Assembly (NCBI GenBank): GCA_001782165.1
Contig: MFNV01000009.1
Span: 122,283-186,282 of the forward strand
DNA: 64,000 nucleotides
Direction of reading: 5' to 3'
Source: Candidatus Levybacteria bacterium RIFCSPHIGHO2_01_FULL_41_15
GTDB taxonomy: Bacteria; Patescibacteriota; Microgenomatia; Levybacterales; UBA12049
In this document: one piece after another, positions 4,851 through 28,848 of the stretch
Layout: each line of letters begins with the position of its first letter
Position numbering within the stretch: the stretch's first letter is position 1
Program-made: the position numbers and the translations under genes
Notes under the pieces: generated by a model
Database searches by the model: none
Told to the model about the DNA's origin: nothing
Seen by the model: the letters and a program-made list of their open reading frames with translations, nothing else

Positions 4851-5229
4851 CCTTTAAAAGAAGGTGGATAATTCTTCTTTCCCATGCTTTAAGAGCAGGA
4901 ACAATTATTTCTTTGTTTTCTGAAATAACTTTTTCTTTTGCTTCGTGTGCCATGCTCTTAAGCCATTCCTCTCTATTTTTTTTGTAATCTCCAACCTCAA
5001 GAGAGATTCTAAAAAACTTCCCCAATTTTTGAGAAATACAAAGAGATAAAATTATTTGAAGAGCTTCAAGAATATCTCCGTGTCTACCTATTACAATCCC
5101 TGAGTCCTGGGTCTGAAGGTTAATATTAAAAGACTCGTCATCGGCCTTAACTGAAACCTCTCCTTCGATTCCTAAGAGCTTGATCAGTTCTTCTGCTGTT
5201 TTTTTTACTGTTTTTTCTTCTTTTGCCAT
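4777..5229 (-). CDS. jag: Jag/KhpB RNA-binding protein (KH + R3H)
   Basis: 150 aa with GxxG KH-like IVIGRHGDILEALQ and a C-terminal R3H-like region. It sits immediately downstream of yidC, as in the rpmH-rnpA-yidD-yidC-jag operon. Confidence 0.7.
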   Translation of the reverse strand: MAKEEKTVKKTAEELIKLLGIEGEVSVKADDESFNINLQTQDSGIVIGRHGDILEALQIILSLCISQKLGKFFRISLEVGDYKKNREEWLKSMAHEAKEKVISENKEIIVPALKAWERRIIHLLLKDDKEVVSESIGEGKERTLVVRPKN

Positions 5230-8208: not shown

Positions 8209-8343
8209 CAGACCTGCGGGTTCTTAACCCTTTATCCCCCTTTTTTTCAACAGTTTTTCCACATTTTTAAACAGTCCCGTCTTGCTTTTTTCCACTTTTC
8301 CATATAGACTACTACAACTACAAATATTAATATAGTTTTAAAA
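8209..8343. promoter_or_regulatory. dnaA-dnaN spacer: candidate oriC segment
   Basis: Two DnaA-box-like 9-mers, TTTTCCACA at 8255-8263 and TTTTCCACT at 8288-8296. They are followed by an AT-rich stretch (catatagactactacaactacaaatattaatatagttttaaaa). A hairpin plus T-run after dnaA looks like a terminator. Confidence 0.4.
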
Positions 8344-9461: not shown

Positions 9462-9962
9462 TCAGTAATTTTCACAAAAACTTAAAGTTTTCCTGGGTGG
9501 GGCAAGATAGGGGTTTGGGACATATGGAGAGGTTACTTTAACTTCTAGTTGGCAAGCTTCCTCCCTTTTTACTCCAAGCTTTGTAATAAAAGCCATCTCC
9601 GCATTCAGTCTAGTCTGTGAGGAGGAGGTTGATATATTAATTATAAATTGACTAAATCTTGTTAAGTAAGCAATTTGGAAATCTCCTTCTTTGATAAAAA
9701 GCACGTCTCCTTCACTATTGGTTTGTATGGGGCTTTTTAGGAAATTATTTGTTTTGACACCTGAAATAATTATTTTATCTGATTGGGGGATTCTAGTTCT
9801 CTCCTCTATTTTTGTCGGAGTTGGAATCTCCCCCTCTTGTCTTTTGTGTTTTGAAGGAAAGAAGAGGGAGAGGAAAAAATAAATTAACCCTAGAGCAATT
9901 AGGGTTGAAAAAAGAATGATAGCAATTCTCTTCATAGACCTATTTAAAAACTTATACCACAC
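9462..9962 (-). CDS. small bitopic secreted/membrane protein, unknown (possible VirB8-like accessory)
   Basis: 166 aa with an N-terminal TM (IAIILFSTLIALGLIYFFLSLFF) and a ~120-aa ectodomain. It is adjacent to the T4SS-like hydrolase gene. Confidence 0.35.
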   Translation of the reverse strand: MWYKFLNRSMKRIAIILFSTLIALGLIYFFLSLFFPSKHKRQEGEIPTPTKIEERTRIPQSDKIIISGVKTNNFLKSPIQTNSEGDVLFIKEGDFQIAYLTRFSQFIINISTSSSQTRLNAEMAFITKLGVKREEACQLEVKVTSPYVPNPYLAPPRKTLSFCENY

Positions 9963-11752: not shown

Positions 11753-11768
11753 AAGTCAATAATGTAAA

Positions 11769-13784
11769 TTAAGTTTTATTAAAAACCGGAGGGGCTTGGG
11801 GCTGCGCAGCTTGCGGTGTAGGGGAGGGAGCTTCGGGGAGAGACTCAGGAGGTGGAGGTTGTTGGGATGGCTGGGAAGGAGCTTGCTCAACAGGATTTTC
11901 CGGAGGGGAAGCAGCTTCCGCCTGCTCCTGCGATTCTTTTTGCTGGATCAATTCCTGAGGGTTTGAGGTTATTATTGTGTGCTCAAAGGGTGCTGCAATA
12001 ACTTTTATCACAACATGACTTTGTCCTGCAAAAAACAAACCTTCTCCTACATCTGATGAAAGAAGAAGCTCTTTTTCTCCTTGTGAAAGGTAAAAAACTT
12101 TTGAGATAAGATCTATTTCTGTAGGAGACTGTTTAAGAAGCATCTGTATTGATGAATTTGATAAAACTGCATTTCCGTAGTCGGTCGATAAGAAATCCTG
12201 AACATCCTGAGTTGCGGTTGTTAAAGCAAGATAATATTTTCGAGCACGTTTTGCGATTCCATAAACAAAAGACGCTGAATCTTCATATTTCATTATATAC
12301 CAGGCCTCATCTAAGACAAGAAGTCTTTTTTTAAGGCTTTTTCTGATTCTTGTCCAGACAAAATCCAAAATAATGTGCATGGCAATGGGGCGAAGTTCAT
12401 CCTCCAAAGCCTTAATTGAAAAAACGGTGAATGGGTTTGTAATATCAAAATTAGACTGCTGATTGAAAATTCCGGAGAGGCTCCCCTTTATAAATTTTTC
12501 AAGCCTTAAGGCAAGTCCTTTTGCTGTCTGATCCTCCATACCAATTAGAACTTTATATAAGTCTTCCATCAAAGGAGGCTGATTTTTTTGAGTCGAAGGA
12601 TCTGCAGTTACCCCTTTTTGTCTATAGGTTTCAACAAGAGCGCGGTCCAAGATTGCATCCTCGCCTGCAGACAGCTCTCCCATGACTATCCGCAAAAGCC
12701 CATGAAGGGAGAGTATTTTAAGCCCCAGCTCATTTTCGCCTTCCTCATAAAGGCCCGAGAGGTCAAATGGATTTATCTTAATCGGATCGGATGGAGTAAA
12801 GGATACATGTTCTCCGCCCAGTGTTTTGGAAAGAGCTTCGTATTCCCCTTCAGGGTCTATTATTATAACTTCGGTCCCAAACATAAACTGTCTTATGGCC
12901 TCAAGTTTTATCAAGTATGACTTTCCTGCACCCGATTTGCCTAATACCACTTCATTTGCGTTTTCCAAAGAATATCTGTCAAAAACTATTAGTGATCCAT
13001 TCTGCTCATTTATTCCATACATGATTCCCTTATCTTGAGTAAGAGTTGCAGATGTGAAAGGGAAAGTAGAGGCAAGAGAAGTTGTATCCATGTTCCTTGC
13101 AATGTAAAGCTTGTCAACACTTTGTGGAAGGCAAGATTTGAATCCTTCTTCCATTTGAAGTGTGGCAGGTTTTGTTATAAGAAGAATAGAGGATAAGGTT
13201 GATGTGAGTTTTTTTGAGGCCACATCAAGATCCTGTATCGTTTCTGAAAAAAGTGTTATGTAAAGACCGAACTGGAAGAATCTTTCGACTCCCTTTGCCA
13301 GTTGTTCCTGAAGCGAAAGAGCATCTTCCAAAGCTGCCTGAACCTTGGGATCAACTATCTTTCCCTCCTCTGTCTGTGACGAGATTGTTGCTTCCATCTC
13401 GGCAATCTTTCTTCGGATATCAGAAAGCACGTCATTTGAGGAAGCAGGGTAGCAAAACATCGAAACATTCATTGAATGATCAAAATCAATAAGAGGAGAA
13501 AGCCAATTGGGCGAAACAAATCTTGGATAACCTACAACAAAAAAGGTCCTGTAATAAAAATCACCTACTCTTATAAAGTTGAAATCTACTTCAACCGAAG
13601 GTGGGGCAATAATATCAAGAAGGGAGGATGTCCCCTTTTCAAGAATTTTGATTCCCTTTGCTTCTATTGTTTTTGCACCCTGCCTGTCCATTTGTCCTGA
13701 GCTCAGGGTTGAAGGACCGGCAGGCAGATCCTGCAAAGGAGTTTGATTATTGGTTTTTTGTTTTTTGAAATTTAAGAATTTCAT
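11769..13784 (-). CDS. virB4: VirB4/TrbE/CagE-family type IV secretion ATPase
   Basis: 671 aa with Walker A VVLGKSGAGKSYLIK, Walker B LLVLDEAWYIM, and an upstream CagE_TrbE_VirB-like region (RVGDFYYRTFFVVGYP). The C-terminal tail is Pro/Gln-rich. Confidence 0.85.
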   Translation of the reverse strand: MKFLNFKKQKTNNQTPLQDLPAGPSTLSSGQMDRQGAKTIEAKGIKILEKGTSSLLDIIAPPSVEVDFNFIRVGDFYYRTFFVVGYPRFVSPNWLSPLIDFDHSMNVSMFCYPASSNDVLSDIRRKIAEMEATISSQTEEGKIVDPKVQAALEDALSLQEQLAKGVERFFQFGLYITLFSETIQDLDVASKKLTSTLSSILLITKPATLQMEEGFKSCLPQSVDKLYIARNMDTTSLASTFPFTSATLTQDKGIMYGINEQNGSLIVFDRYSLENANEVVLGKSGAGKSYLIKLEAIRQFMFGTEVIIIDPEGEYEALSKTLGGEHVSFTPSDPIKINPFDLSGLYEEGENELGLKILSLHGLLRIVMGELSAGEDAILDRALVETYRQKGVTADPSTQKNQPPLMEDLYKVLIGMEDQTAKGLALRLEKFIKGSLSGIFNQQSNFDITNPFTVFSIKALEDELRPIAMHIILDFVWTRIRKSLKKRLLVLDEAWYIMKYEDSASFVYGIAKRARKYYLALTTATQDVQDFLSTDYGNAVLSNSSIQMLLKQSPTEIDLISKVFYLSQGEKELLLSSDVGEGLFFAGQSHVVIKVIAAPFEHTIITSNPQELIQQKESQEQAEAASPPENPVEQAPSQPSQQPPPPESLPEAPSPTPQAAQPQAPPVFNKT

Positions 13785-14446
13785 ACCTGACTCCCCATTT
13801 TTATAATAGGGGTTTTAAGCTCATCGGTTATTTGATTAGTTTCGATGAGGGATCCGTTGAAGATCTCATAAAAAAGTTTGACCAGCTCTTCCTTCTGAAG
13901 AGTTTTTGCGCGAAGACCTAATCTTGCAAGCTGTGAGTGAACGGAGTCTCCCTTGGAATGAAGAGCTGCCTTTGCCTCTTCAAAAAAGGAGTCTTCGGAT
14001 ATTTGACCGGGCATAGCTTTTTTGGCTGCCCCAACCCCCTTTTCAAGATAGGAATATGGAATAACAATATAAAATTTTTTGTCAAGTACCGTATTTACTT
14101 TGACCAGCTCTCTTATAAAATCCCGGTAAAGCCTTATCTGGGAAGATAAAAGCTGATTTGTTGACCCCTGAGCCTGCTCTTCCAAAAGTTTTAAATAAGA
14201 GGAGATATCAAGCTTTTTGCTTCTTATAAATATCTGAATCGGGAAAGATAGGGAATTAAGAAGAGAAGCATAGGAAAAAACTTTTGTGTCCTGTTCTTCT
14301 TTTGAAAGAAGAGAGAAATTCGTGGCATTGACCTCAATTATAAAACAGGCATTTTTACCCGATAATATAACTATGTCCTCTTCGATTCCCTCAATTTCTA
14401 TAAATTTTTGCGTTGTTGCTCTCTTTTTTTGGGCAGTTTTAGTCAT
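13781..14446 (-). CDS. cytoplasmic T4SS-associated protein, unknown (resembles a VirB4 N-terminal domain)
   Basis: 221 aa with no TM. It is translationally coupled (4-nt overlaps) between the PrgI-like gene and virB4. The segment IEIEGIEEDIVILSGKNACFIIEVNATNFSLLSKEEQDTKVFSYASLLNSL resembles the N-terminal region of VirB4/TraC proteins. Confidence 0.35.
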   Translation of the reverse strand: MTKTAQKKRATTQKFIEIEGIEEDIVILSGKNACFIIEVNATNFSLLSKEEQDTKVFSYASLLNSLSFPIQIFIRSKKLDISSYLKLLEEQAQGSTNQLLSSQIRLYRDFIRELVKVNTVLDKKFYIVIPYSYLEKGVGAAKKAMPGQISEDSFFEEAKAALHSKGDSVHSQLARLGLRAKTLQKEELVKLFYEIFNGSLIETNQITDELKTPIIKMGSQV

Positions 14447-15654
14447 GATTTTTGAACGGGATTAAATAATTCTCTTCTAAGTTCTTCTCTTTTGTCAATT
14501 GAAATTATTTCAAGAGGCATTAAAACTTCACCTCTGGCTTCTATCTCAATAGTATCAAATTTATGTTCTCCCTTGGGATCTTCAAAAAATATAGTGTAAA
14601 CTCCGTTACCTAAGGGGGTTGCCGAAGCAAATTGACCTAAGACATTTGTTTTGAATGCTCTTACAGGATTTCCTTCCTCGTCTTTCACCTCAACAAGTAT
14701 ATTAGGAAGAGGATTATTTCTTGAGTCTTTTGCTATTCCCATAACCAAGTTTGGAACATCGGGAATAAAAGGGAGTCCTGCAGTTTTACTCAATTCTCTC
14801 GGAATTCTTCTTGCATGTTTTGTTTCAGGCTTGGGAGTTATAGTTGAGGGACTATAAATATTTTTTCCCTGCATCTTAAGTTTTTTTCTAAGCTCTATTA
14901 TTTGATTCTCCAAAATTTGTTTTTGTGAAGTCACCTCGCTTAAGACCTTTTCAATCTCAAGAATTTTTTGGTGGGCCATTTGGTATTGTTCTCCCGTCTC
15001 CTGTTTTTTTTCCAGATCCTTGGCTTCCTCAAGCTCTTTCTTGAGAACATCAGCCTTTTTGTCAAGCTCTTTTTCTTCCTCTTTTTTTTTGCCTTCGTCT
15101 GTTAAATTTACATTCTCTCTGATCTGATCTTCAAATATCTTTTCATAACCTCCCAAATTCTCCGATATGTCAGTTGGGGATCCTTTGCTCAAAGAAAGAA
15201 GAGAATTTAAAAAATTAAGCTCTTTTTCATCCAATTTATCTTTTGGTTTTTGGGGAAGATTTTTTAAAAACTCTTTAAGTTTTTGGGTGGAATCGGATGA
15301 AGTCATAAGCTTAGATACTGTTTGTACTTGACTTTCCTTGGGTGGCTTGGGGAACCACATATGACCACCTATTTTCTGATATATATACTGAGTTGGATTA
15401 AATAAAGCTTTTATGTAATTTGAAATCATAAGATCAAACGGCCGACCCTCAATAGGAACAAACGCCGCTCCCACCCCCAGGCCTACAAAAAGAAGAACGA
15501 GGGGGATTTTTATAAGGATAAAAATCGGGAGCGCAAAAGTTATCCAGCCTAGGACAACTCCTGTCGCAAGATAGGCAAATTGCTTAATGGTCATGTCCCC
15601 TATCAGCTTAAACTGAAAACCTGTAATATCTTGGGGAATAGGATGATTTTCCAT
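14443..15654 (-). CDS. PrgI/VirB3-like membrane protein fused to coiled-coil and C-terminal beta-sandwich domain
   Basis: 403 aa. N-terminal region (MTIKQFAYLATGVVLGWITFALP... then a second TM) resembles PrgI/VirB3-type small T4SS membrane components located directly upstream of VirB4. A K/E-rich coiled coil follows, and the C-terminus looks like a carboxypeptidase-regulatory-like fold. The true start is probably the Met at MTIKQ. Confidence 0.4.
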   Translation of the reverse strand: MENHPIPQDITGFQFKLIGDMTIKQFAYLATGVVLGWITFALPIFILIKIPLVLLFVGLGVGAAFVPIEGRPFDLMISNYIKALFNPTQYIYQKIGGHMWFPKPPKESQVQTVSKLMTSSDSTQKLKEFLKNLPQKPKDKLDEKELNFLNSLLSLSKGSPTDISENLGGYEKIFEDQIRENVNLTDEGKKKEEEKELDKKADVLKKELEEAKDLEKKQETGEQYQMAHQKILEIEKVLSEVTSQKQILENQIIELRKKLKMQGKNIYSPSTITPKPETKHARRIPRELSKTAGLPFIPDVPNLVMGIAKDSRNNPLPNILVEVKDEEGNPVRAFKTNVLGQFASATPLGNGVYTIFFEDPKGEHKFDTIEIEARGEVLMPLEIISIDKREELRRELFNPVQKS

Positions 15655-15964
15655 AATTTGAAAAGCAACTAGTTCCTAACCACTAGCGGCTAGTTGCTAT
15701 TTTTAACAGTGTATAACGTGAAAAAAATGCTTTCAAGACAGTCAAAATAGATCAAAAAAGAAAAAAAAGAGGCTAGTGTGAAAACTGAATAGTAAATCAC
15801 AAACTCTAAATAACAAATCCTAAATAATATTTAATTTCAAATGCTCAAAATCCAAAAAATTATTATATTCGAATTTTATACTTTGAATTTATCCTTCGAC
15901 GCTACTCAGGATGGTGAGCTTGTCGAACCATTTGGAGCTTGTAATTTTGGATTTAAGATTTAGT

Positions 15965-16342
15965 CTAATTGCAGTTTCCGAAGCCGAATTGTTTTATGCA
16001 GGAGACGCCAGTCAAAGCGCTTATAAAGTTTATTATTGCAAATGAAAGGAGAATTACAACAAGACCGATAATCGCATACGTAAGAGTTTCCCTTGCTTCT
16101 TTTACTTTATCCTCTGTTCCGCCTGACCTTATGTATTTGATTCCCGACCAGATGATGAAAAAAAGAGCTACTATTCCTCCTCCGACAAGCGCCCAGTTAA
16201 TAACATTCTGAAACACAGTCGGAATACACTGAAGAGTTGCGACGCTGTCTTTTACGCAATCTCCCCAGTCAACACCGGGAATGGTAATTCCGCCCCCTCC
16301 TCCGCCTGGAGGCGGAGGCAGTTTGGCAAGAAGTTTATCCAT
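15965..16342 (-). CDS. VirB2/TrbC-like T4SS pilin paralog 1
   Basis: 125 aa with two TM helices flanking IWSGIKYIRSGGTEDKVKEARETLTYAIIGL, a motif shared by all four paralogs. The N-terminus has a PPPPGGGGGG run. Confidence 0.6.
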   Translation of the reverse strand: MDKLLAKLPPPPGGGGGGITIPGVDWGDCVKDSVATLQCIPTVFQNVINWALVGGGIVALFFIIWSGIKYIRSGGTEDKVKEARETLTYAIIGLVVILLSFAIINFISALTGVSCIKQFGFGNCN

Positions 16343-16401
16343 AGTTTTAGATTAGCAAGAAAATTTTAAAAAAACAAGGAAAGATAGAGAAACTCTAAAT
16401 T

Positions 16402-16800
16402 TTACTGGAGCTTTAATGTGGGAAGAGTGAAGGTGGTTATGGTTTTACCGAGGAAGAATCCGACGACAAGATTCAAAATGAAGTATGCCAAAAAGACTAT
16501 TACAAGGCCGACGACTGCGGCAACAATCGTGTTTCTTGCAGCTTCGACATTAGTTTTATCTCCACCCGACAGAATCCACTTAATCCCTCCCCAAATTAAG
16601 AACCCTAATGCAATAAGAACCGCAAGTATGAAAAGAAGGGTAATAACATTTCCGACTACGTTCCCAAAATTACTTGATGTGAGTTTGCAAAGACCGGCGA
16701 AGTCGCCTGTGGGACAAGTGTCAACTGTATCAGCAAAAGCCAAAGCTGGGGAGAGAAGATAAGATGAAAATGCGGCTGTTGTAGCAATTAATTTTTTCAT
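16402..16800 (-). CDS. VirB2/TrbC-like T4SS pilin paralog 2 (with signal peptide)
   Basis: 132 aa with signal peptide MKKLIATTAAFSSYLLSPALAFA and the pilin core LIWGGIKWILSGGDKTNVEAARNTIVAAVVGL. Confidence 0.65.
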   Translation of the reverse strand: MKKLIATTAAFSSYLLSPALAFADTVDTCPTGDFAGLCKLTSSNFGNVVGNVITLLFILAVLIALGFLIWGGIKWILSGGDKTNVEAARNTIVAAVVGLVIVFLAYFILNLVVGFFLGKTITTFTLPTLKLQ

Positions 16801-16887
16801 CTTTAATTAAATGCTATATAGATTTTCACAGTTTGTCAAGCCCCGATTTAACAATTGAGCAATGGAACAATAGAGCAATTGGATTTT

Positions 16888-17196
16888 CTAGAAAATCCTT
16901 ATATTAAAGAATCCGAAAATAAAGTTTATCATAAAAAATGAAAAAAAAGCAATAATCAAACCTACAACAGAATAAGTCAGTCTAAGTCTTGCCTGTTCAA
17001 TTCTTTGTTTATCTCCGCCTGATGTTATCCATTGAATTCCTGCCTGAATCATATAAAAAAGAGCAAGAAAAATCGCCGCAAGAAGAAGCAAAGTAACTCC
17101 TCCCTGAATGATTTTTGAAATGTTCCCTCCTGTTGGAACCTCGCTAGGCGGCTCAATTTCCCGCCCTCCTATTGTAATAGCTATTTTATTTAACAT
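16888..17196 (-). CDS. VirB2/TrbC-like T4SS pilin paralog 3
   Basis: 102 aa with core MIQAGIQWITSGGDKQRIEQARLRLTYSVVGL. Confidence 0.6.
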   Translation of the reverse strand: MLNKIAITIGGREIEPPSEVPTGGNISKIIQGGVTLLLLAAIFLALFYMIQAGIQWITSGGDKQRIEQARLRLTYSVVGLIIAFFSFFMINFIFGFFNIRIF

Positions 17197-17250
17197 TTCT
17201 TATTTATCATTGATCATTAAAATCGTAAATTATAAATCATCAATCACGTT

Positions 17251-18180
17251 TTATTTTATAAAGTCTGGAATGCGTAAAATGTTAAATCCGATTACTTGAA
17301 GAATCACAAAGGAGAATATTATAAAAACAAGCCCTATTATCGCGGCAATTAGCTGATCCCGCGCTGCCTCCAAAGCTTCAGGTTTGCCCCGCGCTGCTAT
17401 AAGCTGATATCCCGAATAGATTATGAGAAGAAGTGCCAGTCCTCCTGAAAGAGAAAGAATAATACCAAAGATTGATTTTATAAGACCCGATGGATCTGTG
17501 CCAATATCTATTCCAAGGCCGGTTGTTACAGAAGTGCAGATTTTTATTTGTTTTTCATCTGTGGTTAAATTCCCTTCTTTATCAAATCCCTTGGAACAGG
17601 GTGGAGGAGGGGGGCTGGGATCAGGTTCTTCGGGTTTTGGCTTATCTGACTGAGGAGAGCAAATTGTATCATATTTCTCAATTTCCAACGTCCATGTCTG
17701 CAGAATTGTTTTTTTAAACTTATCCTTATCAAGGTTGGCTACTAACCCGCATGAATAAACCTTACACTCAGAATTAGCTGGATCGCAGAGTTGGGAATAA
17801 AGACATCTGTCATTATCAGTTAAACCAGAATCATCTCCGCATTTGCCATCAGAAGATATAGGAGGAAGACATCTATACACTCCGTCATTTTCCCTGCAGT
17901 TAAATTCCTGACATCCTGCATCTGTGCAGGGCTGGGTTGACAGGCAAAACGGCGAATTTTCATCGTTGCATTCTATAGGGGAGTTATAAGGATTCGTTTG
18001 GGGGGCAGGGCCTCCGCCTGTATCTCCTGTCTCTACTGCCAAAGAGGGCGGGGGTTTGAAAATTAAAATAAGGAGAATTATTACAACAACTCTTAGAATT
18101 TGTCCCACAATTTTATAGTAGACAAGTTGAGAATACTTTGCAAGAGCCGTCAAGCTATGCTTGGAATTTTCAATTTTCAA
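17251..18180 (-). CDS. Cys-rich ectodomain fused to C-terminal VirB2/TrbC-like pilin domain
   Basis: 309 aa. An N-terminal TM anchor is followed by a ~170-aa domain with ~22 Cys and a PPPPP linker. The C-terminal 70 aa are a pilin core (IIYSGYQLIAARGKPEALEAARDQLIAAIIGL). The start is a TTG embedded in a 7-nt x4 tandem repeat, so the 5' boundary is uncertain. Confidence 0.55.
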   Translation of the reverse strand: MKIENSKHSLTALAKYSQLVYYKIVGQILRVVVIILLILIFKPPPSLAVETGDTGGGPAPQTNPYNSPIECNDENSPFCLSTQPCTDAGCQEFNCRENDGVYRCLPPISSDGKCGDDSGLTDNDRCLYSQLCDPANSECKVYSCGLVANLDKDKFKKTILQTWTLEIEKYDTICSPQSDKPKPEEPDPSPPPPPCSKGFDKEGNLTTDEKQIKICTSVTTGLGIDIGTDPSGLIKSIFGIILSLSGGLALLLIIYSGYQLIAARGKPEALEAARDQLIAAIIGLVFIIFSFVILQVIGFNILRIPDFIK

Positions 18181-18266
18181 TTTTCAATTTTCAATGAATT
18201 TTTAATGTTTCAAGCTTTAAATTTTAAAAACTTAGATTTGATTTCAAATTTCAAATTTAAAATTAT

Positions 18267-19619
18267 TTATGGTGTAAATTTTATTCCTCTTCCCTTAATT
18301 GTTTGCAAGTGAGATGGATTATTGGGGTCGTCTTCTATTTTTTTTCGAAGGCGAAAGATTAGCTGATCCAGAGCTTGATCGGTTACTCCTTCTGTTGATT
18401 TTGAATTTTTCCACACGGCGTTTATTACTTCCTCCCTTTCTACAATTTTATCTTTATTCTCAATCAGGAACTTAAGGAGCTTAAATTCGGAAGAGGTCAG
18501 AATATCAGAAAGGATACTATCTCCCTTTTTTATCTCGTTGGTGATAGGGTCAAACGAAATGACTTGATTACCCAATTGTTCGATTACCGTGATGAATTTT
18601 TCAAAAAGGGGAATTGAGATTTTACTGTTTTCTATTAATCCAACGTTTTGTAAATAGCCACTAGAAATTAGTTGGTTAGCAATTAGTGATTTCTGTTCGG
18701 AAGGTGTTAAGGAATACAAAATCTCATAAAGAGAACCTCTTATCGTTTTTTGCTCAAGCAAAAAACTCTGTAACCCTATTCTGGTTGCTAGTTGCCAATT
18801 GCTAGTCGCTAATCTTGTCTCAAGACAAAGCCTTGTTAATTTTCCGTGGCCTGCGGTTAGTGAAATTATTTTGTTAGTTAGTTTTTCGTTTATTCTTTTA
18901 CCGCTTACTTTTTCAAGGTATGAGATTCGGAAATCAAGACCGGGCTTGTCAAATAGCGGTAAATAAACGATGTTTCCTGCCAAAAATTCATAAAAATCCG
19001 AGAAAAGCATTGGTTCTATCAAATCCTCAAGGGGTCTATTAAGAGAAAAAACAACAGAGAATCTGTATTTTGCCCTGTTTCTCAAGATTCTAAGATTGGC
19101 AAAAAATTCAGATGAGAGCATTGGTACATATTCTTCAAATCTGTCAAACAGAAAGACTACTGTAAGTTCTTTCTCAATACAAAGGTAATCAATTGCTTTT
19201 TTAAGGCCCCCAAACAAAACCATCTCGTCATTGGTCAGAAGCGATTCTTTGAAAATCTTATCCATGGTTTCATGTTCCTGCATTTTTCTTTCTCTTAATG
19301 AATCAACAAGTGAAAGGAAGATGAATTTTGTTGCCTCAAATAAGGGCTTTTTTCTAATCTCCGAAAAATTTAAGAGGACAAAATGAAACCATTTCTGGTC
19401 TTCTCCTAAATGTTTTAACCGGACAGTGCGGTTATAAGATAAAAGACCCAAAAGATTTGATCTTCCAACCCCGGGAAGACCAATAAGCTGAGCCGATTTT
19501 CCTTCCTTTGCAAACCTTAAGATTTTTTCTATTTCATCAAATCTTGAATTTTCAGGGTATAATGATTCGAAATGAGCCAGTTCACTACCATCGACCATTG
19601 ATGATTTATTATTTACCAT
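18267..19619 (-). CDS. putative transcriptional regulator: N-terminal P-loop NTPase-like (STAND/AAA-like) + C-terminal OmpR/PhoB-type winged helix
   Basis: 450 aa. A degenerate Walker A (LIGLPGVGRSNLLGLL) and hhhhD (VVFLFDRFEE) sit at the N-terminus. The C-terminal ~95 aa (SSEFKLLKFLIENKDKIVEREEVINAVWKN...ALDQLIFRLRKKIEDDP...LQTIKGRGIKF) is a clear trans_reg_C wHTH. Confidence 0.55.
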   Translation of the reverse strand: MVNNKSSMVDGSELAHFESLYPENSRFDEIEKILRFAKEGKSAQLIGLPGVGRSNLLGLLSYNRTVRLKHLGEDQKWFHFVLLNFSEIRKKPLFEATKFIFLSLVDSLRERKMQEHETMDKIFKESLLTNDEMVLFGGLKKAIDYLCIEKELTVVFLFDRFEEYVPMLSSEFFANLRILRNRAKYRFSVVFSLNRPLEDLIEPMLFSDFYEFLAGNIVYLPLFDKPGLDFRISYLEKVSGKRINEKLTNKIISLTAGHGKLTRLCLETRLATSNWQLATRIGLQSFLLEQKTIRGSLYEILYSLTPSEQKSLIANQLISSGYLQNVGLIENSKISIPLFEKFITVIEQLGNQVISFDPITNEIKKGDSILSDILTSSEFKLLKFLIENKDKIVEREEVINAVWKNSKSTEGVTDQALDQLIFRLRKKIEDDPNNPSHLQTIKGRGIKFTP

Positions 19620-22963: not shown

Positions 22964-24694
22964 TTATCCTACGCCGAATCTTCGACCGAATGCTCGTAGT
23001 TTTCCGACTTTGCCGTAACTTACCCTTCCTGTTGCTTGATCATAACCTGCCAATCTATATTCCTCAGAACCGGCTATAGTTTGACCTACACCCTTAGCTA
23101 CAGAAATTGGGTAACCTGCTCCCGCTCCAACTGCGGCACCGATTGAGGAGAGGTCGATTTTGGGTGCCTTGAGAGCTTCTCTTAATGTTGTTACAATTCT
23201 TGGCGCAGTCAATATGATTCCAAGGGCAATTATTGCGCCGAAACGCTCTCCATTGGGGTTTCCTATAAAAGGCGGCACGAACATGTCTCCCCCTCCTGCA
23301 TCAAAAAGATGCATAAAAGTCTCTCCCAGAAGGAAAAGAACAAGAGTTGCCGGGAAAGCCGCAAGGTTTGAAATAAGACTTCTGAGCCAGGAGGTAAAGC
23401 TGATTGTACTTCCCGGGAAAAGTCCTGCGACAATCCAGAAAGGCGCAAATACTATGTCTATGAGAATCATTATATAGGCCTGAAGAAGGATAAACCAGAG
23501 TCTAAACAGCGCCCAGAGAATTGCAATAAGAATCACCAGAAATGCAATTATACCGGCCAACCCTCCGATTACGATCTTCCCAGCATAGTTTGTAAGGTCG
23601 CACGCTCCTCCTCCAAATAACCCAAAACCAGAAGTTATAAAATTGAGGGCTCCGCTTAAAAAACCTCCCACAACAGGAAGACTTTCAAAAATCGCACAAG
23701 TACTCCCCGCAACCGCACCAATAGGCCCGGCAAGTATGAAACCAAGTACTGCGGTTATAATACTGCCTAAATAAGTAGTAAAAAGACCTGGGGTGAGACT
23801 GGCTATTATATTACCCACACTATAAGAAGCATTAAACGCAACTGTAAAAATATTAAATGTATCATGCGCAACACTAAAAGGAGAAGTATATAGCCGCGGA
23901 ACATCGTGTTCAAAGATATTTAGGATCAAATATAGGGCGACATACATAAGGTCAATAAGAAAAGCTGCAATTGCAAGAGAGAATGTCACAAGAAGTATCC
24001 CTATAATTAATTTGGGTATTTGGTTCTGCAAAGTCATGACAGTTCGCGGATCTATTTTTACCCTAAGCATTATTGCAACTCCTATAATCACAAAGACAAG
24101 GACAAACAGAAGATATACAATGTCTCTGAATTTACTCCAAAGAGGAATAAGAGGAGAGACTCTGGAGACGCCAAGTCCTGTATTCTGGGCATAAGTACTT
24201 TTTGCTATCCCAAAATTTTGAGCAAGATCTTTCATATAGTCTGCCGCGTGAACAGGAGCCGTATAGAGCATACCGATCATGCCTCCCATAAAACCCACTG
24301 CTCCTCCACCGCCTTCAACAAAGCCGATACTTCCGGTCTTAGGATCAACACCGAGGCATTTTTGTGAGACATTTGTCGGATCAATTCCCGAAAGCTGGCA
24401 GACAAGAGCGGACATTACTTCTATCATCACACTTTGGGTATAAGTATGAAGGTTTTTTGGGACATCAGGATTTGTGTTGGGGGCAGCGTAGGGATTGGTT
24501 TGGTTATTTTGGTAATTGGGTAGATTGGAGTTCGGAATGCTTACTGTCTGAGCAAAAGTTGGGGATTTAAAAATTAAGAATGAAAAAATAAAAAATAAAA
24601 AAACCAAAATAAGATACGGGCCCCACTTCGTTAAAACTTCCACCGTCGCTAAGGCTTTGGCGGACAAGTCGCGGGGCAAGGCAGGAAGTCTCAT
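22964..24694 (-). CDS. polytopic membrane protein, VirB6/TrbL-like candidate
   Basis: 576 aa with a signal/TM start and then ~8-10 TM helices with Gly-rich loops. Its size and topology fit the VirB6/PrgH-class channel subunits usually encoded with VirB4 systems. Confidence 0.4.
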   Translation of the reverse strand: MRLPALPRDLSAKALATVEVLTKWGPYLILVFLFFIFSFLIFKSPTFAQTVSIPNSNLPNYQNNQTNPYAAPNTNPDVPKNLHTYTQSVMIEVMSALVCQLSGIDPTNVSQKCLGVDPKTGSIGFVEGGGGAVGFMGGMIGMLYTAPVHAADYMKDLAQNFGIAKSTYAQNTGLGVSRVSPLIPLWSKFRDIVYLLFVLVFVIIGVAIMLRVKIDPRTVMTLQNQIPKLIIGILLVTFSLAIAAFLIDLMYVALYLILNIFEHDVPRLYTSPFSVAHDTFNIFTVAFNASYSVGNIIASLTPGLFTTYLGSIITAVLGFILAGPIGAVAGSTCAIFESLPVVGGFLSGALNFITSGFGLFGGGACDLTNYAGKIVIGGLAGIIAFLVILIAILWALFRLWFILLQAYIMILIDIVFAPFWIVAGLFPGSTISFTSWLRSLISNLAAFPATLVLFLLGETFMHLFDAGGGDMFVPPFIGNPNGERFGAIIALGIILTAPRIVTTLREALKAPKIDLSSIGAAVGAGAGYPISVAKGVGQTIAGSEEYRLAGYDQATGRVSYGKVGKLRAFGRRFGVG

Positions 24695-24773
24695 CTTATT
24701 TGAGTTTGATATATTAATTAAGAATTGTCAAGAAAGGGAAGCAAATTGCTGGATTGTTAGATTGTTGGAGAAG

Positions 24774-24861
24774 TGCGGAGGAGAGGAGATTCGAACTCCT
24801 GATACGGTTGCCCGTAAACCTGCTCTCCAAGCAAGCGCCATAGGCCACTAGGCGACTCCTC
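24774..24861 (-). tRNA. tRNA-Ser (anticodon GGA)
   Basis: Manual fold: acceptor GGAGGAG/CTCCTCC, anticodon loop TTGGAGA, long variable arm, T-loop TTCGAAT. CCA is not encoded. Confidence 0.8.
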
Positions 24862-24965
24862 CAAAATTAAATTCCAAAATTCGAAATCTTGAATCCTAAA
24901 TAAATCCTAAACCCAAAATTACAAATTTCAAACGATTGGACAATTTAGCAGTCCTTATTATATCA

Positions 24966-25382
24966 TCAGATCAATTTTCTTGCGTTTTGCCAAACTTGCC
25001 TGTCAGATTTATATGTAAGTCTTTCTTCAACTTTTTCAAGAGGGATCCATTCAACGTTCTGCATTTCCCAGTCATGCTCTTTGGTGTCTCCTGACCCGTG
25101 CTCCATAAGAAAATAATAAACAGTTTTTTTAATCTTTTGACCTTGAAAATTATACCAGTATGTAACAGGCTGTAAAGCTTTAATTATTTTCCCATTTATC
25201 CCTGTTTCTTCCTTAACTTCTCTTATTGCAGTTTCTTCTTTACTTTCTTTCTTTTTATGGTCACCGATTACCCCTTTAGGAAATACCCATCCGTGATGGC
25301 CTGAATGCTGAGCGACAAGAATAAATATCTTATCTTTAGATTTTTTATATACTATTCCACCGGCAGAGAACTCGAATTTCAT
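24966..25382 (-). CDS. NUDIX hydrolase
   Basis: 138 aa with the Nudix box GWVFPKGVIGDHKKKESKEETAIREVKEETG. Confidence 0.85.
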   Translation of the reverse strand: MKFEFSAGGIVYKKSKDKIFILVAQHSGHHGWVFPKGVIGDHKKKESKEETAIREVKEETGINGKIIKALQPVTYWYNFQGQKIKKTVYYFLMEHGSGDTKEHDWEMQNVEWIPLEKVEERLTYKSDRQVWQNARKLI

Positions 25383-25496
25383 TTCTTACCCCTCTGTTAA
25401 TATTGGTTTAGTCCACGCTTGTCTTCGCTGACGCTTCGCAAGCGAGCTCCGTCGCTTCGCCCCGTACCAGTCTGGTACAGGGCTTCGCTCGTCCGC

Positions 25497-25522
25497 TCCA
25501 CCTGCAGAAAATTCAAACTTCA
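25497..25522. repeat. direct repeat copy 1 (ccacctgcagaaaattcaaacttcat); on the minus strand it encodes MKFEFSAGG
   Basis: 25/26 identical to the copy at 26056-26081. Both re-encode the first 9 residues of the adjacent NUDIX gene with different synonymous codons. Confidence 0.6.
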
Positions 25523-25529
25523 TGATACA

Positions 25530-25763
25530 TTAGTCTTTCAATAATTTAATAAACTCATCTCTGCCCACCCGTAGATCTCTCTTTATTATTTTTGTTAATA
25601 ATCCGATACCGATCACTTGCGCAGGATGGATTGGAATAGTAGTTCTTCTTCCGTCAGGATGCATATAAATTGCGTGGCTTCCGCTTTGATCGCGAAAAGT
25701 AAATCCAAGTCTTAACACTACCTTAACTAATTCTCTTGCTTTGACTTGAGGAAGTTTTGGCAT
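25530..25763 (-). CDS. hicA: HicA mRNA interferase toxin
   Basis: 77 aa; ...GFTFRDQSGSHAIYMHPDGRRTTIPIHP... matches the HicA/YcfA family. Confidence 0.75.
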   Translation of the reverse strand: MPKLPQVKARELVKVVLRLGFTFRDQSGSHAIYMHPDGRRTTIPIHPAQVIGIGLLTKIIKRDLRVGRDEFIKLLKD

Positions 25764-26014
25764 TAGATAGATACTTCAAGCGAAGTCATACTTACGGGTT
25801 CAACTTTTGGAATATCCTGATGTTCTTTGCGAAGAACCTTTAAATGCAGTTTGATTGCGTCGCGAATATTAGTAATTGCCTGTTCAAGTGTTTTTCCTTG
25901 CGTATGACATCCTGCAAGATCTGGGCAGTCTGCCACAAAAAATCCATCCTCATCCTTTTCAATGATAACCGGAAATTTATAGGTAGTAGTTTTTATTTTT
26001 TGCATTTTTCCCAT
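25763..26014 (-). CDS. hicB: HicB antitoxin (UPF0150 family)
   Basis: 83 aa; KFPVIIEKDEDGFFVADCPDLAGCHTQGKTLEQAITNIRDAIKLHL. Its stop overlaps the hicA start. Confidence 0.7.
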   Translation of the reverse strand: MGKMQKIKTTTYKFPVIIEKDEDGFFVADCPDLAGCHTQGKTLEQAITNIRDAIKLHLKVLRKEHQDIPKVEPVSMTSLEVSI

Positions 26015-26055
26015 ATACTTATTATAACATTTTTAGTTCTTTCCTGCCGACAACT

Positions 26056-26081
26056 CCGCCTGCAGAAAATTCAAACTTCAT
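26056..26081. repeat. direct repeat copy 2 (ccgcctgcagaaaattcaaacttcat), abutting the 3' end of tRNA-Ser(CGA)
   Basis: Read directly; on the minus strand it opens a 19-codon mini-ORF MKFEFSAGGVVGRKELKML*. Confidence 0.6.
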
Positions 26082-26082
26082 G

Positions 26083-26166
26083 CGGAGGGTACAGGATTCG
26101 AACCTGTGAGGGATTACTCCCACGAGTTTTCGAAACTCGCGCCTTAAACCGCTCGGCCAACCCTCC
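26083..26166 (-). tRNA. tRNA-Ser (anticodon CGA)
   Basis: Acceptor GGAGGGT/ACCCTCC, anticodon loop TTCGAAA, long variable arm, T-loop TTCGAAT, discriminator G. Confidence 0.8.
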
Positions 26167-26181
26167 AATTTTATTAAATTG

Positions 26182-26255
26182 CACCCTCGAAAGGATTCGA
26201 ACCTTCGACCTCGACGTCCGCAACGTCGCGCTCTATCCAACTGAGCTACGAGGGC
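26182..26255 (-). tRNA. tRNA-Arg (anticodon GCG)
   Basis: Manual fold: acceptor GCCCTCG/CGAGGGT (G1-U72), D-arm GCTCAGTTGGATAGAGC, anticodon stem-loop CGACG-TTGCGGA-CGTCG, 5-nt variable loop, T-loop TTCGAAT. Confidence 0.6.
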
Positions 26256-26341
26256 ATCCTCTAACCGTCCCGCCAGAGGCGGGATGCTACTATCCGTTGA
26301 ACTACGGGCACAAAGTGGTTTTTATTCTATCTAATTTTAGA

Positions 26342-26953
26342 TTATGAAGCAACTTTTGTGTTCTCAAGAGGAAAATTTTTGGAAAGAAAATTTCCTGCAT
26401 TTTCCATAAAAGTAGGTTTTATCACCTCTCTATAGGGAAGATACGGTAGGAGAACAGATCTTACGTGCTCTACGTCAAGGTTGCCAAGCGGAACAGTCAA
26501 AACACCCGGAATAAAAGCATGCGTTCTCACATGAAGAACTTCTATTCCTTCCACCCTTTTAAAATAAAAATCATAAAGCTCCTGCCATAAAAAGAAATGA
26601 TCTTCAATTGTTATGCCCTCTGTTGAGATCCGATAATGAAAATTATGAGGGGGGACAATGGCAAGTGCAAAGGCAACAAAAACAAGAGACAGGACTACAA
26701 GCATCAAAAGATATTGGGAGAATAAAAATAAAATAACTTGGACAAGAAGCATTATAAGAAGGCTAGTTAGAAAGTATTGCTTAGTTCTTTTCTTGTACGG
26801 TCTTCCGGGAGCGGTCCAGGACAAAAGGGTTTTTATATGGGGATATTGCGTTTCCGCCTGAAGTTCTAAAGGCTCTTTGGGAAGGTCTGCCTTGCCGGCA
26901 GGCAGGTCTCTGGCTTCTTTGGGAAATAATTTTTCCTCTTTTTGGGCAGCCAT
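26342..26953 (-). CDS. membrane protein of unknown function
   Basis: 203 aa with two central TM helices and a ~100-aa C-terminal domain. Confidence 0.4.
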   Translation of the reverse strand: MAAQKEEKLFPKEARDLPAGKADLPKEPLELQAETQYPHIKTLLSWTAPGRPYKKRTKQYFLTSLLIMLLVQVILFLFSQYLLMLVVLSLVFVAFALAIVPPHNFHYRISTEGITIEDHFFLWQELYDFYFKRVEGIEVLHVRTHAFIPGVLTVPLGNLDVEHVRSVLLPYLPYREVIKPTFMENAGNFLSKNFPLENTKVAS

Positions 26954-27000
26954 AAGTTTAATTTATAGGATTAGGAGGAATTAGTCAATGGCGAATAGAA

Positions 27001-27327
27001 CTAGATTCTGGCAGCGTAATTGAAGGCGTAAAAGTATTTTTTAAAAGAGCTATCAGTGGAAAGATATTGATTGTCTAAATACCAGTCAACAAGAACCTCT
27101 CGCATACGGCATAGTTCTTTGAGCCGCATGCGGTTTTTTGGGTCTTTTAGAGTTAGATCAATTAGCTCCAATGCCCGCTCGAATGCCAATTTTTGATATT
27201 GTTTATTACCTTTATTCTTCCAGATTATAGTCCGCTCAACTTCACTACCTATATTAGCCATTTGTTCTACGAGCCTCATATTAAACCAGTGTTTTTTGGA
27301 TAAATTTTTATGATAGATAAGATTCAT
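27001..27327 (-). CDS. small hypothetical protein (downstream member of an overlapping two-gene module)
   Basis: 108 aa, predicted helical. Its start overlaps the upstream 113-aa ORF by 4 nt (ATGA). Confidence 0.35.
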   Translation of the reverse strand: MNLIYHKNLSKKHWFNMRLVEQMANIGSEVERTIIWKNKGNKQYQKLAFERALELIDLTLKDPKNRMRLKELCRMREVLVDWYLDNQYLSTDSSFKKYFYAFNYAARI

Positions 27328-27665
27328 CTTTGAACTAACTTATTTATTATTTGAATTATTTTTTTTTGAATTTTCGGATCATCAACACCACGAGAGTAAT
27401 TGTCTTGTGATGGCTTAAGATTGATCATTGAATCAAATTCGATAAAATCATCGCCCTTTTTTTCTGGATAGAGATTAATACCCCATAAATCTTCCTGCTT
27501 AGATCCACGCTGCAATAAATATTGCTCTTCGTCGGCATGCAGTTCGGCGTTGATCACCATTATTTCTTTTTTAACATCAATAACTGCCTTGACCAAAATA
27601 CCAAACATTCTTTTGGCCATTCTTTTAATTTCTAGAATACTGATTTTTTTTTCAACAACTTTCAT
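27324..27665 (-). CDS. small hypothetical protein (upstream member of an overlapping two-gene module)
   Basis: 113 aa, translationally coupled to the 108-aa ORF. Architecture is toxin-antitoxin-like, but no family was recognised. Confidence 0.35.
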   Translation of the reverse strand: MKVVEKKISILEIKRMAKRMFGILVKAVIDVKKEIMVINAELHADEEQYLLQRGSKQEDLWGINLYPEKKGDDFIEFDSMINLKPSQDNYSRGVDDPKIQKKIIQIINKLVQR

Positions 27666-27892
27666 AAAACCATTCTAACATGCCAAAGATATTGCTTCAA
27701 TGATTTGATCCCGGGGATCATGGCAGAGGAGTATTATTTTCTGTTGGAGTTTAAGATTTTTTCTAGTCGATTTCTTATGTTTACCAACTGGCGGTGGGAG
27801 TGAGATTCACTTCGGCTCCGCTCAGTGTAAACTTCTCATCCCATTTACACTTCGCCAATCTCAGAACATAAAGTCCTGAGCTTGTCGAAGGG

Positions 27893-27979
27893 CGGTGGGA
27901 GTGAGATTCGAACTCACGGCGGCATTGCTGCCACAATGGTTTTCAAGACCATCCGGATAAACCACTCCCGCATCCCACC
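27893..27979 (-). tRNA. tRNA-Ser (anticodon TGA)
   Basis: Acceptor GGTGGGA/TCCCACC, anticodon stem-loop ATGGT-CTTGAAA-ACCAT, long variable arm, T-loop TTCGAAT. Confidence 0.8.
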
Positions 27980-27984
27980 AAATG

Positions 27985-28072
27985 CGGAGAGGGTGGGATT
28001 CGAACCCACGCGAGCCTTGCGGCTCAGGGGATTAGCAATCCCCCGCAATGGACCAAACTATGCGACCTCTCC
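27985..28072 (-). tRNA. tRNA-Ser (anticodon GCT)
   Basis: Acceptor GGAGAGG/CCTCTCC, anticodon stem-loop GGGGA-TTGCTAA-TCCCC, long variable arm, T-loop TTCGAAT. Confidence 0.8.
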
Positions 28073-28152
28073 AAAATCAGCCGTTAGCAATTAGCCACTA
28101 GCTGTTAGCAGTATTATACCATCAAAACTCTAATTTTTGCTACACTGATATT

Positions 28153-28848
28153 GTGGATTTCTTAGATATCTTTTTCCCAAAATATTGCGTAAATTGTAAA
28201 AAATTGGGCGATTATATTTGCTCTGACTGTTTTTCCTTTCTGTCTTTTGATGTGGAGAAGATTTGCGCTGTTTGTAACCTCCCTACTTTTAATAACCTGA
28301 CTCACCCAAGGTGCAGGAAAAGATATACGATTGACGGAGTTTTTTCAAGTATTTCCTATAAGGGGACAGCCAAAAAACTGATCTATAACTTCAAATATAA
28401 CCCCTATGTTTCGGATTTGGAAAAACTTTTGACGGACATTTTTTACGAAGGACTTATCCAAAAAGAGGAGTTTCACAAAGTTTTAAATTCTCAAAAAGTA
28501 GTTTTGGTGCCAATTCCGCTCTATCATTTAAGAGAAAGAAAAAGGGGATACAACCATGCTTCTATTTTAGCTGAGCAAATTTCAAAGAAATTAAATATCC
28601 CTGTTTGTAAAGTTTTAGAGCGCATAAAAAACACAAAAACACAAGTAAATTTAGACAAGGAGGAGAGGAAAAAAAATTTAAAAAATGCTTTTGTGATTGC
28701 CCCTGAGTTCAAAAATAAACTTAAAGGCAGAGAGGTTTTTCTAGTGGATGATGTATTTACCACTGGCTCAACCCTTTTGGAGGCGGCAAATACTTTAAAA
28801 AGAAGCGGAGTAAAAAAGGTCTTCGGTTTGACTTTAGCGAGGGGTTGA
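28153..28848 (+). CDS. comFC: ComF-family protein (double zinc-ribbon + phosphoribosyltransferase domain)
   Basis: 231 aa with an N-terminal CxxC...CxxC pair and C-terminal PRTase motif VFLVDDVFTTGSTL. Confidence 0.75.
   Translation: MDFLDIFFPKYCVNCKKLGDYICSDCFSFLSFDVEKICAVCNLPTFNNLTHPRCRKRYTIDGVFSSISYKGTAKKLIYNFKYNPYVSDLEKLLTDIFYEGLIQKEEFHKVLNSQKVVLVPIPLYHLRERKRGYNHASILAEQISKKLNIPVCKVLERIKNTKTQVNLDKEERKKNLKNAFVIAPEFKNKLKGREVFLVDDVFTTGSTLLEAANTLKRSGVKKVFGLTLARG

Follow-up and report, generated by a model that had tools for sequence, protein, structure and literature searches.

The minimal mobile elements of Neisseria are sites between conserved genes at which cassettes are swapped by transformation and homologous recombination, with no mobility genes. 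Phages 21 and e14 in the Escherichia coli icd gene, and islands in the 3' ends of tRNA genes, integrate at a gene end and supply a replacement end. Naturally transformable bacteria such as Acinetobacter and pneumococcus undergo homology-facilitated illegitimate recombination, which combines one homologous anchor with one illegitimate join. Here we compare these systems with a locus in a 64,000-nucleotide (nt) stretch, hereafter the window, of contig MFNV01000009.1 from Candidatus Levybacteria bacterium RIFCSPHIGHO2_01_FULL_41_15 (GCA_001782165.1). In it, a hicBA toxin–antitoxin cassette stands between a tRNA-Ser(CGA) gene and a NUDIX hydrolase gene and is flanked by direct repeats of the start of the NUDIX gene. 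We think it probable that the tRNA-Ser(CGA)–NUDIX interval is a cassette-exchange hot spot of Levybacteria, and that the repeats are NUDIX 5' ends left behind by successive recombination rather than duplications made by a transposase or integrase.

The Neisseria elements offer the closest analogy. Like them, the locus has conserved flanks (tRNA-Ser(CGA) and NUDIX) around varied or empty content and a cassette less diverged than those flanks. Also as in Neisseria, no mobility gene was found: neither a Pfam scan of the 38 open reading frames (ORFs) of the window nor the precomputed Pfam matches of called genes within 6 kb on related contigs revealed an integrase, transposase or recombinase. It differs in that one homology arm is a 23-45-nt gene start, repeatedly duplicated, so that nested remnants bracket the cassettes, and competence of these bacteria is presumptive. 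As with phage 21 and e14 in icd, the target gene is kept intact by a second, mainly synonymously different end, and the displaced end survives on the far side. In contrast to those phages, no integrase was found in these scans, the insert is ~0.5 kb, the 5' rather than the 3' end is duplicated, and the remnants are variable. One anchor plus one illegitimate join, as a putative mechanism, would explain the variable gene-end remnants that we describe at NUDIX and at dnaJ.

Bacteria of the candidate phyla radiation (CPR) are uncultivated, and gene exchange among them is known almost solely through genome comparison. At this locus, exchange events that followed one another can be read to the nucleotide: metagenome contigs of Levybacteria, several of them from shared samples, include empty sites, two independent scars and the recombinant of these scars. 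With no mobility gene found nearby, a toxin–antitoxin cassette of 0.5 kb has moved between species, a 23-45-nt gene start apparently serving as homology. The cassette is new within the HicAB family, and the hot spot is of a known general kind; genome-plasticity specialists will find the case unsurprising, instructive but ordinary. Literature searches on toxin–antitoxin cassettes in CPR bacteria, and on hicAB with flanking repeats, turned up nothing specific.

Three copies of a gene start around hicBA

Gene orders are given as read on the minus strand (Table 1). A 23-nt core, CCTGCAGAAAATTCAAACTTCAT, occurs twice in the window, at 25501-25523 and 26059-26081, flanking hicB and hicA. No further copy was found in the window with up to three mismatches permitted, and none of 100 shuffles matched. 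The earlier note had reported this arrangement, with the first core misplaced by 1 nt, and had described a repeat of 26 nt with 25 identical; the repeat is real and extends to 29 nt, of which 28 are identical (25496-25524 and 26054-26082). The NUDIX start itself is a third copy (25355-25383), 76% identical to the 29-nt repeat. All three encode MKFEFSAGG on the minus strand, as the note had recognized, and the NUDIX start differs from copies 1 and 2 at 5 of 27 coding bases, all of them third codon positions (probability by chance ~(1/3)^5 = 0.004). The sole mismatch between the two repeats is GGC in copy 2, as in the related loci L110 and L102, and GGT in copy 1, as in L121 (L-numbers denote contigs or loci of relatives used for comparison). 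Within the repeat, the five remnants compared all have the same 16-nt TTGAATTTTCTGCAGG; the starts of functional genes, in contrast, vary synonymously.

Table 1 Positions of features at the tRNA-Ser(CGA)–NUDIX locus (window coordinates)
Feature	Position	Strand	Basis and remarks
tRNA-Ser(GGA)	24775..24862	-	ARAGORN, Rfam; downstream limit of conserved block
NUDIX hydrolase, 138 amino acids (aa)	24966..25382	-	PF00293, E = 1.1e-18; start synonymously recoded (ATGAAATTCGAGTTCTCTGCC)
GC-rich spacer, 114 nt	25383..25496	-	hairpin-rich; four GCGAAG motifs; ends in AGAGGGG Shine-Dalgarno sequence
Copy 1 (rem27)	25497..25523	-	first 9 NUDIX codons, 7 nt past hicA stop; right repeat 25496-25524
hicA, predicted toxin, 77 aa	25530..25763	-	PF07927, E = 9.5e-17, 61.3 bits (cut-off 27)
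hicB, predicted antitoxin, 83 aa	25763..26014	-	PF15919, E = 9.8e-14, 52 bits (cut-off 27)
Promoter-like site for hicBA	26021..26050	-	consensus scan: TCGGCA, 18 nt, TG-n-TATAAT; TGTTATAAT
Copy 2 (rem45)	26034..26081	-	displaced in-situ NUDIX 5' end, ~15 codons (MKFEFSAGGVVGRKE...)
tRNA-Ser(CGA)	26082..26166	-	ARAGORN, Rfam; 3' end touches copy 2 ATG
tRNA-Arg(GCG)	26181..26255	-	ARAGORN; Rfam RF00005, 65.5 bits; upstream member of conserved tRNA pair

The tRNA and the repeat, whose first bases are the NUDIX ATG, have at most 1 nt in common. Copy 2 has its ATG (26081-26079) 0-1 nt past the 3' end of tRNA-Ser(CGA), which ARAGORN places at 26082-26166 and Rfam at 26083-26166, so the adjacency proposed before stands and the 2-nt gap reported with it does not. 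The first 27-29 nt of rem45 form the left repeat (26054-26082). Copy 2 remains NUDIX-like beyond them, to ~45 nt, reading GGA GTT GTC GGC AGG AAA GAA where L099 has GGA ATT GTT TAT AAA AAA GAA. This likeness past the repeat marks copy 2 as the displaced 5' end of a NUDIX gene (codons 1-15), still in its ancestral place against the tRNA. Copy 1 opens a 45-codon ORF (25386-25523) that matched no Pfam family and, together with the guanine-plus-cytosine (GC)-rich spacer behind it, has the appearance of a second, older scar. Remnant lengths differ among the loci, at 45, 27 and 15 nt, with an internally deleted remnant in L102.

By profile and structural alignment, the cassette is a member of the HicAB type II toxin–antitoxin family, its toxin and antitoxin roles being predicted. 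HicA aligns with structure 1whz, with a GSH motif opposite GGH, and only residues 13-68 of HicB align with HicB structures, the part matched in 6g1c and 6g1n being N-terminal (residues 2-58). A C-terminal DNA-binding domain for autoregulation is typical of the HicB family, although not universal; this HicB shows no such domain (ribbon-helix-helix or helix-turn-helix) and no second Pfam domain. With the described systems (Burkholderia pseudomallei 6g1c/6g1n and the Thermus HicA-like 1whz) it shares a GSH-bearing HicA domain, the HicB N-terminal domain and adjacent overlapping genes, the hicA start overlapping the hicB stop at 25763. It departs from them in its antitoxin-then-toxin order, in an 83-aa HicB without the DNA-binding domain of the 142-aa 6g1n HicB, and in a transcript that is probably leaderless and would start from an extended -10 promoter.

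The candidate promoter has its -35-like hexamer inside rem45. Because its -10 box ends 6 nt before the hicB ATG, hicB is probably leaderless, and an extended -10 box 6-7 nt before the hicB ATG is kept in L102, L110, L145 and L150. The TG-n-TATAAT site would serve as the promoter, and the arrangement suggests that hicBA is a self-contained unit with a leaderless transcript. Protein homologues of HicB, 75-95% identical, occur across Levy-, Curtiss-, Davies- and Woykebacteria. Homologues of the pair in these groups are 75-87% identical in protein and stand in unrelated contexts; roughly 290 hicBA homologues were retrieved.

The spacer between copy 1 and the NUDIX gene has a GC content of 57%, against 38% for the window. 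We aligned it with its counterparts in L121, L125, L142 and L139. Relative to L121, L125 and L142 the window spacer is 28 nt longer, comprising a 22-nt near-perfect palindrome (25460-25481; minus strand CCTGTACCAGACTGGTACGGGG) and a duplicated CGAAGC, as though a very small hairpin had been inserted with duplication of 6 nt. In ~1 Mb of comparison loci the spacer was seen solely upstream of NUDIX; it is not repeated elsewhere in the window, nor in the viral contigs searched. An Rfam scan of 24500-28300 at E <= 1 returned tRNAs only, with no match in the spacer. We considered whether the spacer is a decayed tRNA-Arg(CCG), which is present at this place in L017, L019 and L120, and rejected it: there is no likeness by eye and no ARAGORN or Rfam call. 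The 45-codon ORF was likewise dismissed as a gene, having no Pfam match and a frame that differs between lineages.

Short in-frame GC-rich insertions also occur within NUDIX orthologues (P0026, P0082, P0117; L117:397-460; L125, L121, L137), encoding LRQAQDK, PSASSGQA, GGFKRQAKSEKRK and similar peptides. The insertion in L117 lies directly past codon 9, the same point as the rem27/spacer junction, and has AGCGAA-type repeats like the spacer. Such GC-rich mini-insertions may form a family in these AT-rich genomes.

Empty sites, separate junctions and lateral transfer

The order tRNA-Arg(GCG), tRNA-Ser(CGA), variable interval, NUDIX, tRNA-Ser(GGA) is kept in Levybacteria and one Gottesmanbacteria genome. 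The NUDIX translation carries the Nudix box G-x5-E-x7-REVKEETGI, and the N-terminus MKFEFSAGG(I/V)V is kept in most of 120 NUDIX orthologues (67-78% identical). A profile scan of genome contigs with the NUDIX alignment returned mostly distant NUDIX genes and five useful loci. The proposal that the cassette entered a site still empty in relatives is borne out: the tRNA-Ser(CGA) 3' end (...CTCCGC) directly abuts the ATG of a full-length NUDIX gene at L099:5000/5001, L115:4202/4203, L131:123/124 and L138:2928/2929. The aligned 3' part of the L131 tRNA region (98 nt) is 95% identical to the window, and the NUDIX genes of L115 and L138 begin with the exact 28 nt of copy 1. In L114, L117, L133 and L134 the NUDIX ATG abuts tRNA-Ser(TGA) instead, and small gaps separate tRNA and NUDIX in L098 (5 nt) and L015 (23 nt). 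Other occupants of the interval are tRNA-Arg(CCG), a phd/PIN pair (L095), a pair of 111-aa and ~300-aa genes, and ABC transporter genes; L018 and L019 hold further genes there.

Altogether, a NUDIX ATG without spacer behind tRNA-Ser was seen in at least eight Levybacteria contigs (7 distinct sequences). Since the ATG abuts the tRNA in this way, tRNA 3' processing could release an essentially leaderless NUDIX mRNA, by analogy with mitochondrial tRNA punctuation.

Both junctions of copy 1 occur separately elsewhere: the sequence hicA-7 nt-ATGAAG... is found without the spacer, and ...GGTGGA|GCGGACGAG is found without hicBA. The former is seen in L102 and L118, where the NUDIX start lies 7 nt past hicA with no spacer (the gene is complete in L102 and cut by the contig end in L118) and the remnant upstream of hicB is reduced to ATGAAG...AGAAC. 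L110, from a co-occurring species, has the same rem45, frameshifted, and the same junction into the hicB promoter; past its hicA come TAATGCTATC, a 15-nt NUDIX start (ATGAAGTTTGAATTT), an inverted 111-aa/296-aa pair and the full NUDIX opening with the exact 23-nt core. The latter junction, copy 1 followed by the GC-rich spacer and a recoded NUDIX without hicBA, is found in L121/L135/L144, L125 and L142, in all of which the start of the functional NUDIX gene uses other codons than the remnant. The order in L121, L135 and L144 is tRNA-Ser, 76 nt, rem27, spacer, NUDIX; that in L142 (GCA_000380825.1) is tRNA-Ser, ATGAAGCTTGAATTTTCTGCAGGCGGA, GC-rich spacer and a NUDIX beginning ATGAAACTAGAGTTCTCTGCCGGTGGG. 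L139-141 have the remnant and a recoded NUDIX without the GC-rich part, which is bounded by GTGGA repeats. Over its first 42 nt the copy 1 and spacer unit is 100% identical between the window and L121.

As both copy 1 junctions exist apart from each other, the window is a recombinant with its crossover inside the shared 23-27 nt; by this comparison it must join two older junctions. The GGC/GGT difference agrees with a crossover in the core because copy 2 is of the donor type (L110, L102) and copy 1 of the recipient type (L121). The suggestion in the earlier note that serial events had displaced the NUDIX start has thus held up, copy 2 reading as the in-situ start and copy 1 with its spacer occurring without hicBA in L121, L125 and L142.

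Divergence along the locus separates the cassette from its surroundings. The hicBA block (510 nt) is 93% identical to L110 and L102, and its high-identity limits coincide with the repeats. The flanks (a 203-aa gene, NUDIX, a 576-aa gene and tRNA-Ser(CGA)) are 68-77% identical to those of the same two loci, tRNA-Ser being 71% identical. At third codon positions, hicB and hicA have an identity of 0.86-0.88 and NUDIX one of 0.44. Because hicBA is so much less diverged than its flanks, the cassette was shared long after the species split, and these alignments show recent lateral transfer of the block. No relative that might represent a phage or plasmid vector for hicBA was found among the viral contigs searched.

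Within the same species, L006 (~1990-2080; hicB 3'/hicA 5', window ~25710-25800) has 8 differences in 87 nt, all 8 matching the allele of L102, a co-occurring species, and otherwise no mismatch over 2 kb from the NUDIX start onward. Gene conversion or ongoing exchange is a possible reading of this tract.

A comparable arrangement lies at an unrelated locus in L150-154, L150 being from another Microgenomates genome. There the neighbours of a hicBA homologue are dnaJ and an HD-domain gene, and two forms of the 3' end of dnaJ enclose the homologue (L150:2374-2455 and 2998-3079; 82 nt, 73% identical), of which the downstream remnant encodes the DnaJ C-terminal VIIRIRVPTRLTREQRRLLEEFERSS. It is the same signature as at the NUDIX locus. 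Because it recurs at dnaJ, the pattern of a cassette enclosed by two variants of the end of an adjacent gene may mark recently transferred cassettes in these genomes generally. The hicBA of L145 has no flanking repeats.

Proposed recombination at a gene start and its rivals

These observations are most economically explained by cassette exchange at a hot spot where the conserved NUDIX start and the tRNA provide the homology. In the ancestral state the tRNA-Ser 3' end would have touched the NUDIX ATG. A GC-rich leader and a synonymously different NUDIX copy would then have been placed behind codon 9 of the resident gene, leaving rem27 beside the tRNA, as in L142. In another lineage, hicBA and a fresh NUDIX start would have entered behind codon ~15 to give rem45-hicBA-NUDIX, as in L102 and L110. 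Finally, a crossover within the common 23-27 nt would have joined such a unit to the rem27 carried by the ancestor of the window. The unit would have come either as a looped-out circle or tandem copy through a single (Campbell-type) crossover, or on a linear fragment that crossed over a second time farther to the left. The outcome would be the present order of tRNA, rem45-hicBA-rem27-spacer-NUDIX. A crossover within the repeat between 'hicBA plus one repeat' and a pre-existing NUDIX-start remnant leaves target sequence on both sides, so the topology originally proposed is retained.

Throughout, the conserved NUDIX start would serve as a short portable homology arm. The primary events may have been integrations for which the NUDIX body was the anchor and whose illegitimate join fell within the 5' end of the recipient, leaving the recipient start as a remnant. 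As a donor-type start would be supplied and the recipient start left, the copies would differ only at synonymous sites. We infer the enzymology, RecA-type recombination with illegitimate joining, probably after DNA uptake, and likewise the order of events.

Several observations weigh against this history. No donor with a window-like left flank was found that would tell a single from a double crossover or show which element arrived first. A length of 23-27 nt is near or below the minimum for efficient RecA recombination. The primary junctions of rem45 and rem27 have no obvious verifiable microhomology, the primary events being inferred rather than observed, and the L006 tract could be a metagenome assembly chimera. 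The recombinase scan covered the 64-kb window, and a dedicated recombinase may be encoded elsewhere in the genome. Finally, identity is 92-100% over rem27 and the GC-rich spacer portion where the NUDIX proteins are 64-75% identical and ungrouped, and the AT-rich 20 nt beside them are clearly less conserved (spacer comparisons rest on 4-5 distinct sequences). This conservation hints at selection or at mobility of its own, neither of which a pure scar model predicts, and the spacer may be a functional NUDIX leader or may itself be laterally exchanged.

Site-specific recombination would explain why near-perfect 29-nt direct repeats sit exactly at the limits of the transferred block: the 23-29-nt NUDIX start would be an att site at which a recombinase encoded elsewhere inserts and excises minimal cassettes, an integron-like process in CPR bacteria. 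The invariance of TTGAATTTTCTGCAGG in remnants while functional starts vary, the different cassettes at the same interval in different genomes, and a 558-bp unit with its own promoter that resembles a gene cassette all speak for it. Integron cassettes are likewise short units, often toxin–antitoxin pairs, arrayed at one site and bounded by repeats. However, remnants of 45, 27 and 15 nt, one more being internally deleted, place the junctions at more than one position; neither the window ORFs nor the records for related contigs hold an integrase or recombinase; and neither phd/PIN in L095 nor hicBA in L145 has a flanking repeat. The repeats at dnaJ are of another sequence and only 73% identical, which fits gene-end scars and not a common att site. 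Unlike integron cassettes, the locus has coding-sequence repeats and its own promoter; no intI-like protein was found among the window ORFs scanned, and the repeats lack the imperfect palindrome of attC. The boundaries GAAC|TAAAAATG and TGTATC|ATGAAGTTTG have no GTTRRRY by reading, with no formal attC model applied. Xer/dif-like and attC-like sites were set aside, since reading the repeat showed neither internal or central dyad symmetry nor a matching boundary motif of the GTTRRRY type. An integrase-mediated tRNA island was also rejected, no integrase having been found in the scans and the repeat deriving from the NUDIX start, not the tRNA 3' end. We judge site-specific recombination unlikely, and slightly more so its stronger form, in which the NUDIX start (TTGAATTTTCTGCAGG) is the dedicated recombination site of a CPR-native integron-like system with its recombinase elsewhere and the GC-rich hairpin as part of the site. 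A single site-specific insertion that duplicated its target, as first proposed, is not supported: its junctions pre-exist separately, remnant lengths vary, the repeat is a gene start, and there are no inverted repeats and no mobility gene in the regions scanned.

A short insert between direct repeats could equally recall a non-autonomous transposable unit with a 26-29-nt target-site duplication. Usual target-site duplications are 2-15 nt, and 27-45 nt is far beyond that length; the cassette ends have no terminal inverted repeats, and no transposase was found in the scans. Moreover, copy 2 runs to ~45 nt, copy 1 stops at 27 nt, where it meets a junction already present in hicBA-free genomes, and the hicBA family occurs at an unrelated site without such repeats (L145). 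L121 and L142, with copy 1 and spacer but no hicBA at all, largely refute transposition, which we hold to be very improbable. That the duplicated starts were retained for function is compatible with a recombinational origin and is doubtful rather than implausible: rem45, inside which the -35-like hexamer lies, would provide the -35 region of hicBA, and rem27 with the hairpins would form either a leader with structure or an upstream ORF to which NUDIX translation is coupled. In its favour are the conservation of rem27 and the GC-rich part across lineages with synonymously saturated NUDIX genes, an ORF open from the remnant ATG/GTG to 3-20 nt before the NUDIX ATG in all five lineages, a spacer fold z-score of -2.97, and one hairpin (CGCUUG/CAAGCG) with a compensatory change. 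Yet these comparisons comprise 4-5 distinct sequences and a single covarying pair, the frame and peptide of the upstream ORF are not conserved (the window's 28-nt insertion shifts the frame), GC-rich sequence is free of stops by chance, Rfam found no match at E <= 1, and L139-141 have none of the GC-rich part. The same aquifer samples do contain related Levybacteria whose cassettes are 93% identical, from which a strain mis-join might create repeats. But the layout recurs in at least 14 contigs with 0-8 differences; these are up to 154 kb long and stem from independent ENA, JGI and NCBI assemblies (among them GCA_001783985.1) that differ in sample and assembler, so an assembly artefact, which the earlier note had named as its possible refutation, has a next to negligible chance of explaining it. 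We retain cassette exchange by recombination at the NUDIX start as the preferred account.

Rearrangements and neighbouring genes

Other contents of the interval were seen in several relatives. In L095, one of the two closest NUDIX relatives (78% identical), a phd antitoxin and a PIN toxin lie directly upstream of NUDIX (4349-5004); the PIN stop overlaps the NUDIX ATG (ATGA), and no repeat flanks the pair. A gene pair encoding ~111 aa (MDIQQEVE...KKEL...) and ~300-360 aa, Ala-rich by eye, stands beside NUDIX in either orientation (L110:2055-3283, L102:2552-3884, L137:7138-8571, L123:1006-2319, L139:130-1402). It is found on either side of hicBA, depending on the species, and has no precomputed Pfam match in the contig tables.

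Besides its variable content, the locus shows rearrangement. The tRNA-Ser(CGA)-NUDIX-tRNA-Ser(GGA) segment (compare window 24775-26255) is inverted relative to its flanks in L099, L102, L103 and L104, where tRNA-Arg(GCG) and a homologue of the 203-aa gene adjoin tRNA-Ser(GGA); in L015 and L110, tRNA-Ser(GGA) alone is inverted. L009 (5000-5530), from the same species, is identical to the window through the tRNA-Ser(GGA) 3' end (window ~24775) and then diverges at once. Where the window has its 576-aa gene, L009 has an 83-aa ORF (MVYIRHMIRTQVYLPEQLYQEINLV...) that resembles an antitoxin by eye, and an 81-aa called gene truncated at the end of the contig. This gives the population a second site, again beside a tRNA, at which small cassettes insert.

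Farther away (6862-9456 and 9944-19619), the window lies next to dnaA and dnaN and includes a gene cluster for proteins resembling PrgI and type IV secretion pilins. Because dnaA and dnaN adjoin, the window is probably near the replication origin. At 11031-11400, inside a 602-aa ORF, GC reaches 71% in 80-nt windows, a stretch we take for coding sequence of low complexity. In relatives, a homologue of the 120-aa gene near 19.7-20.1 kb matches the 23S_rRNA_IVP and bAvd families.

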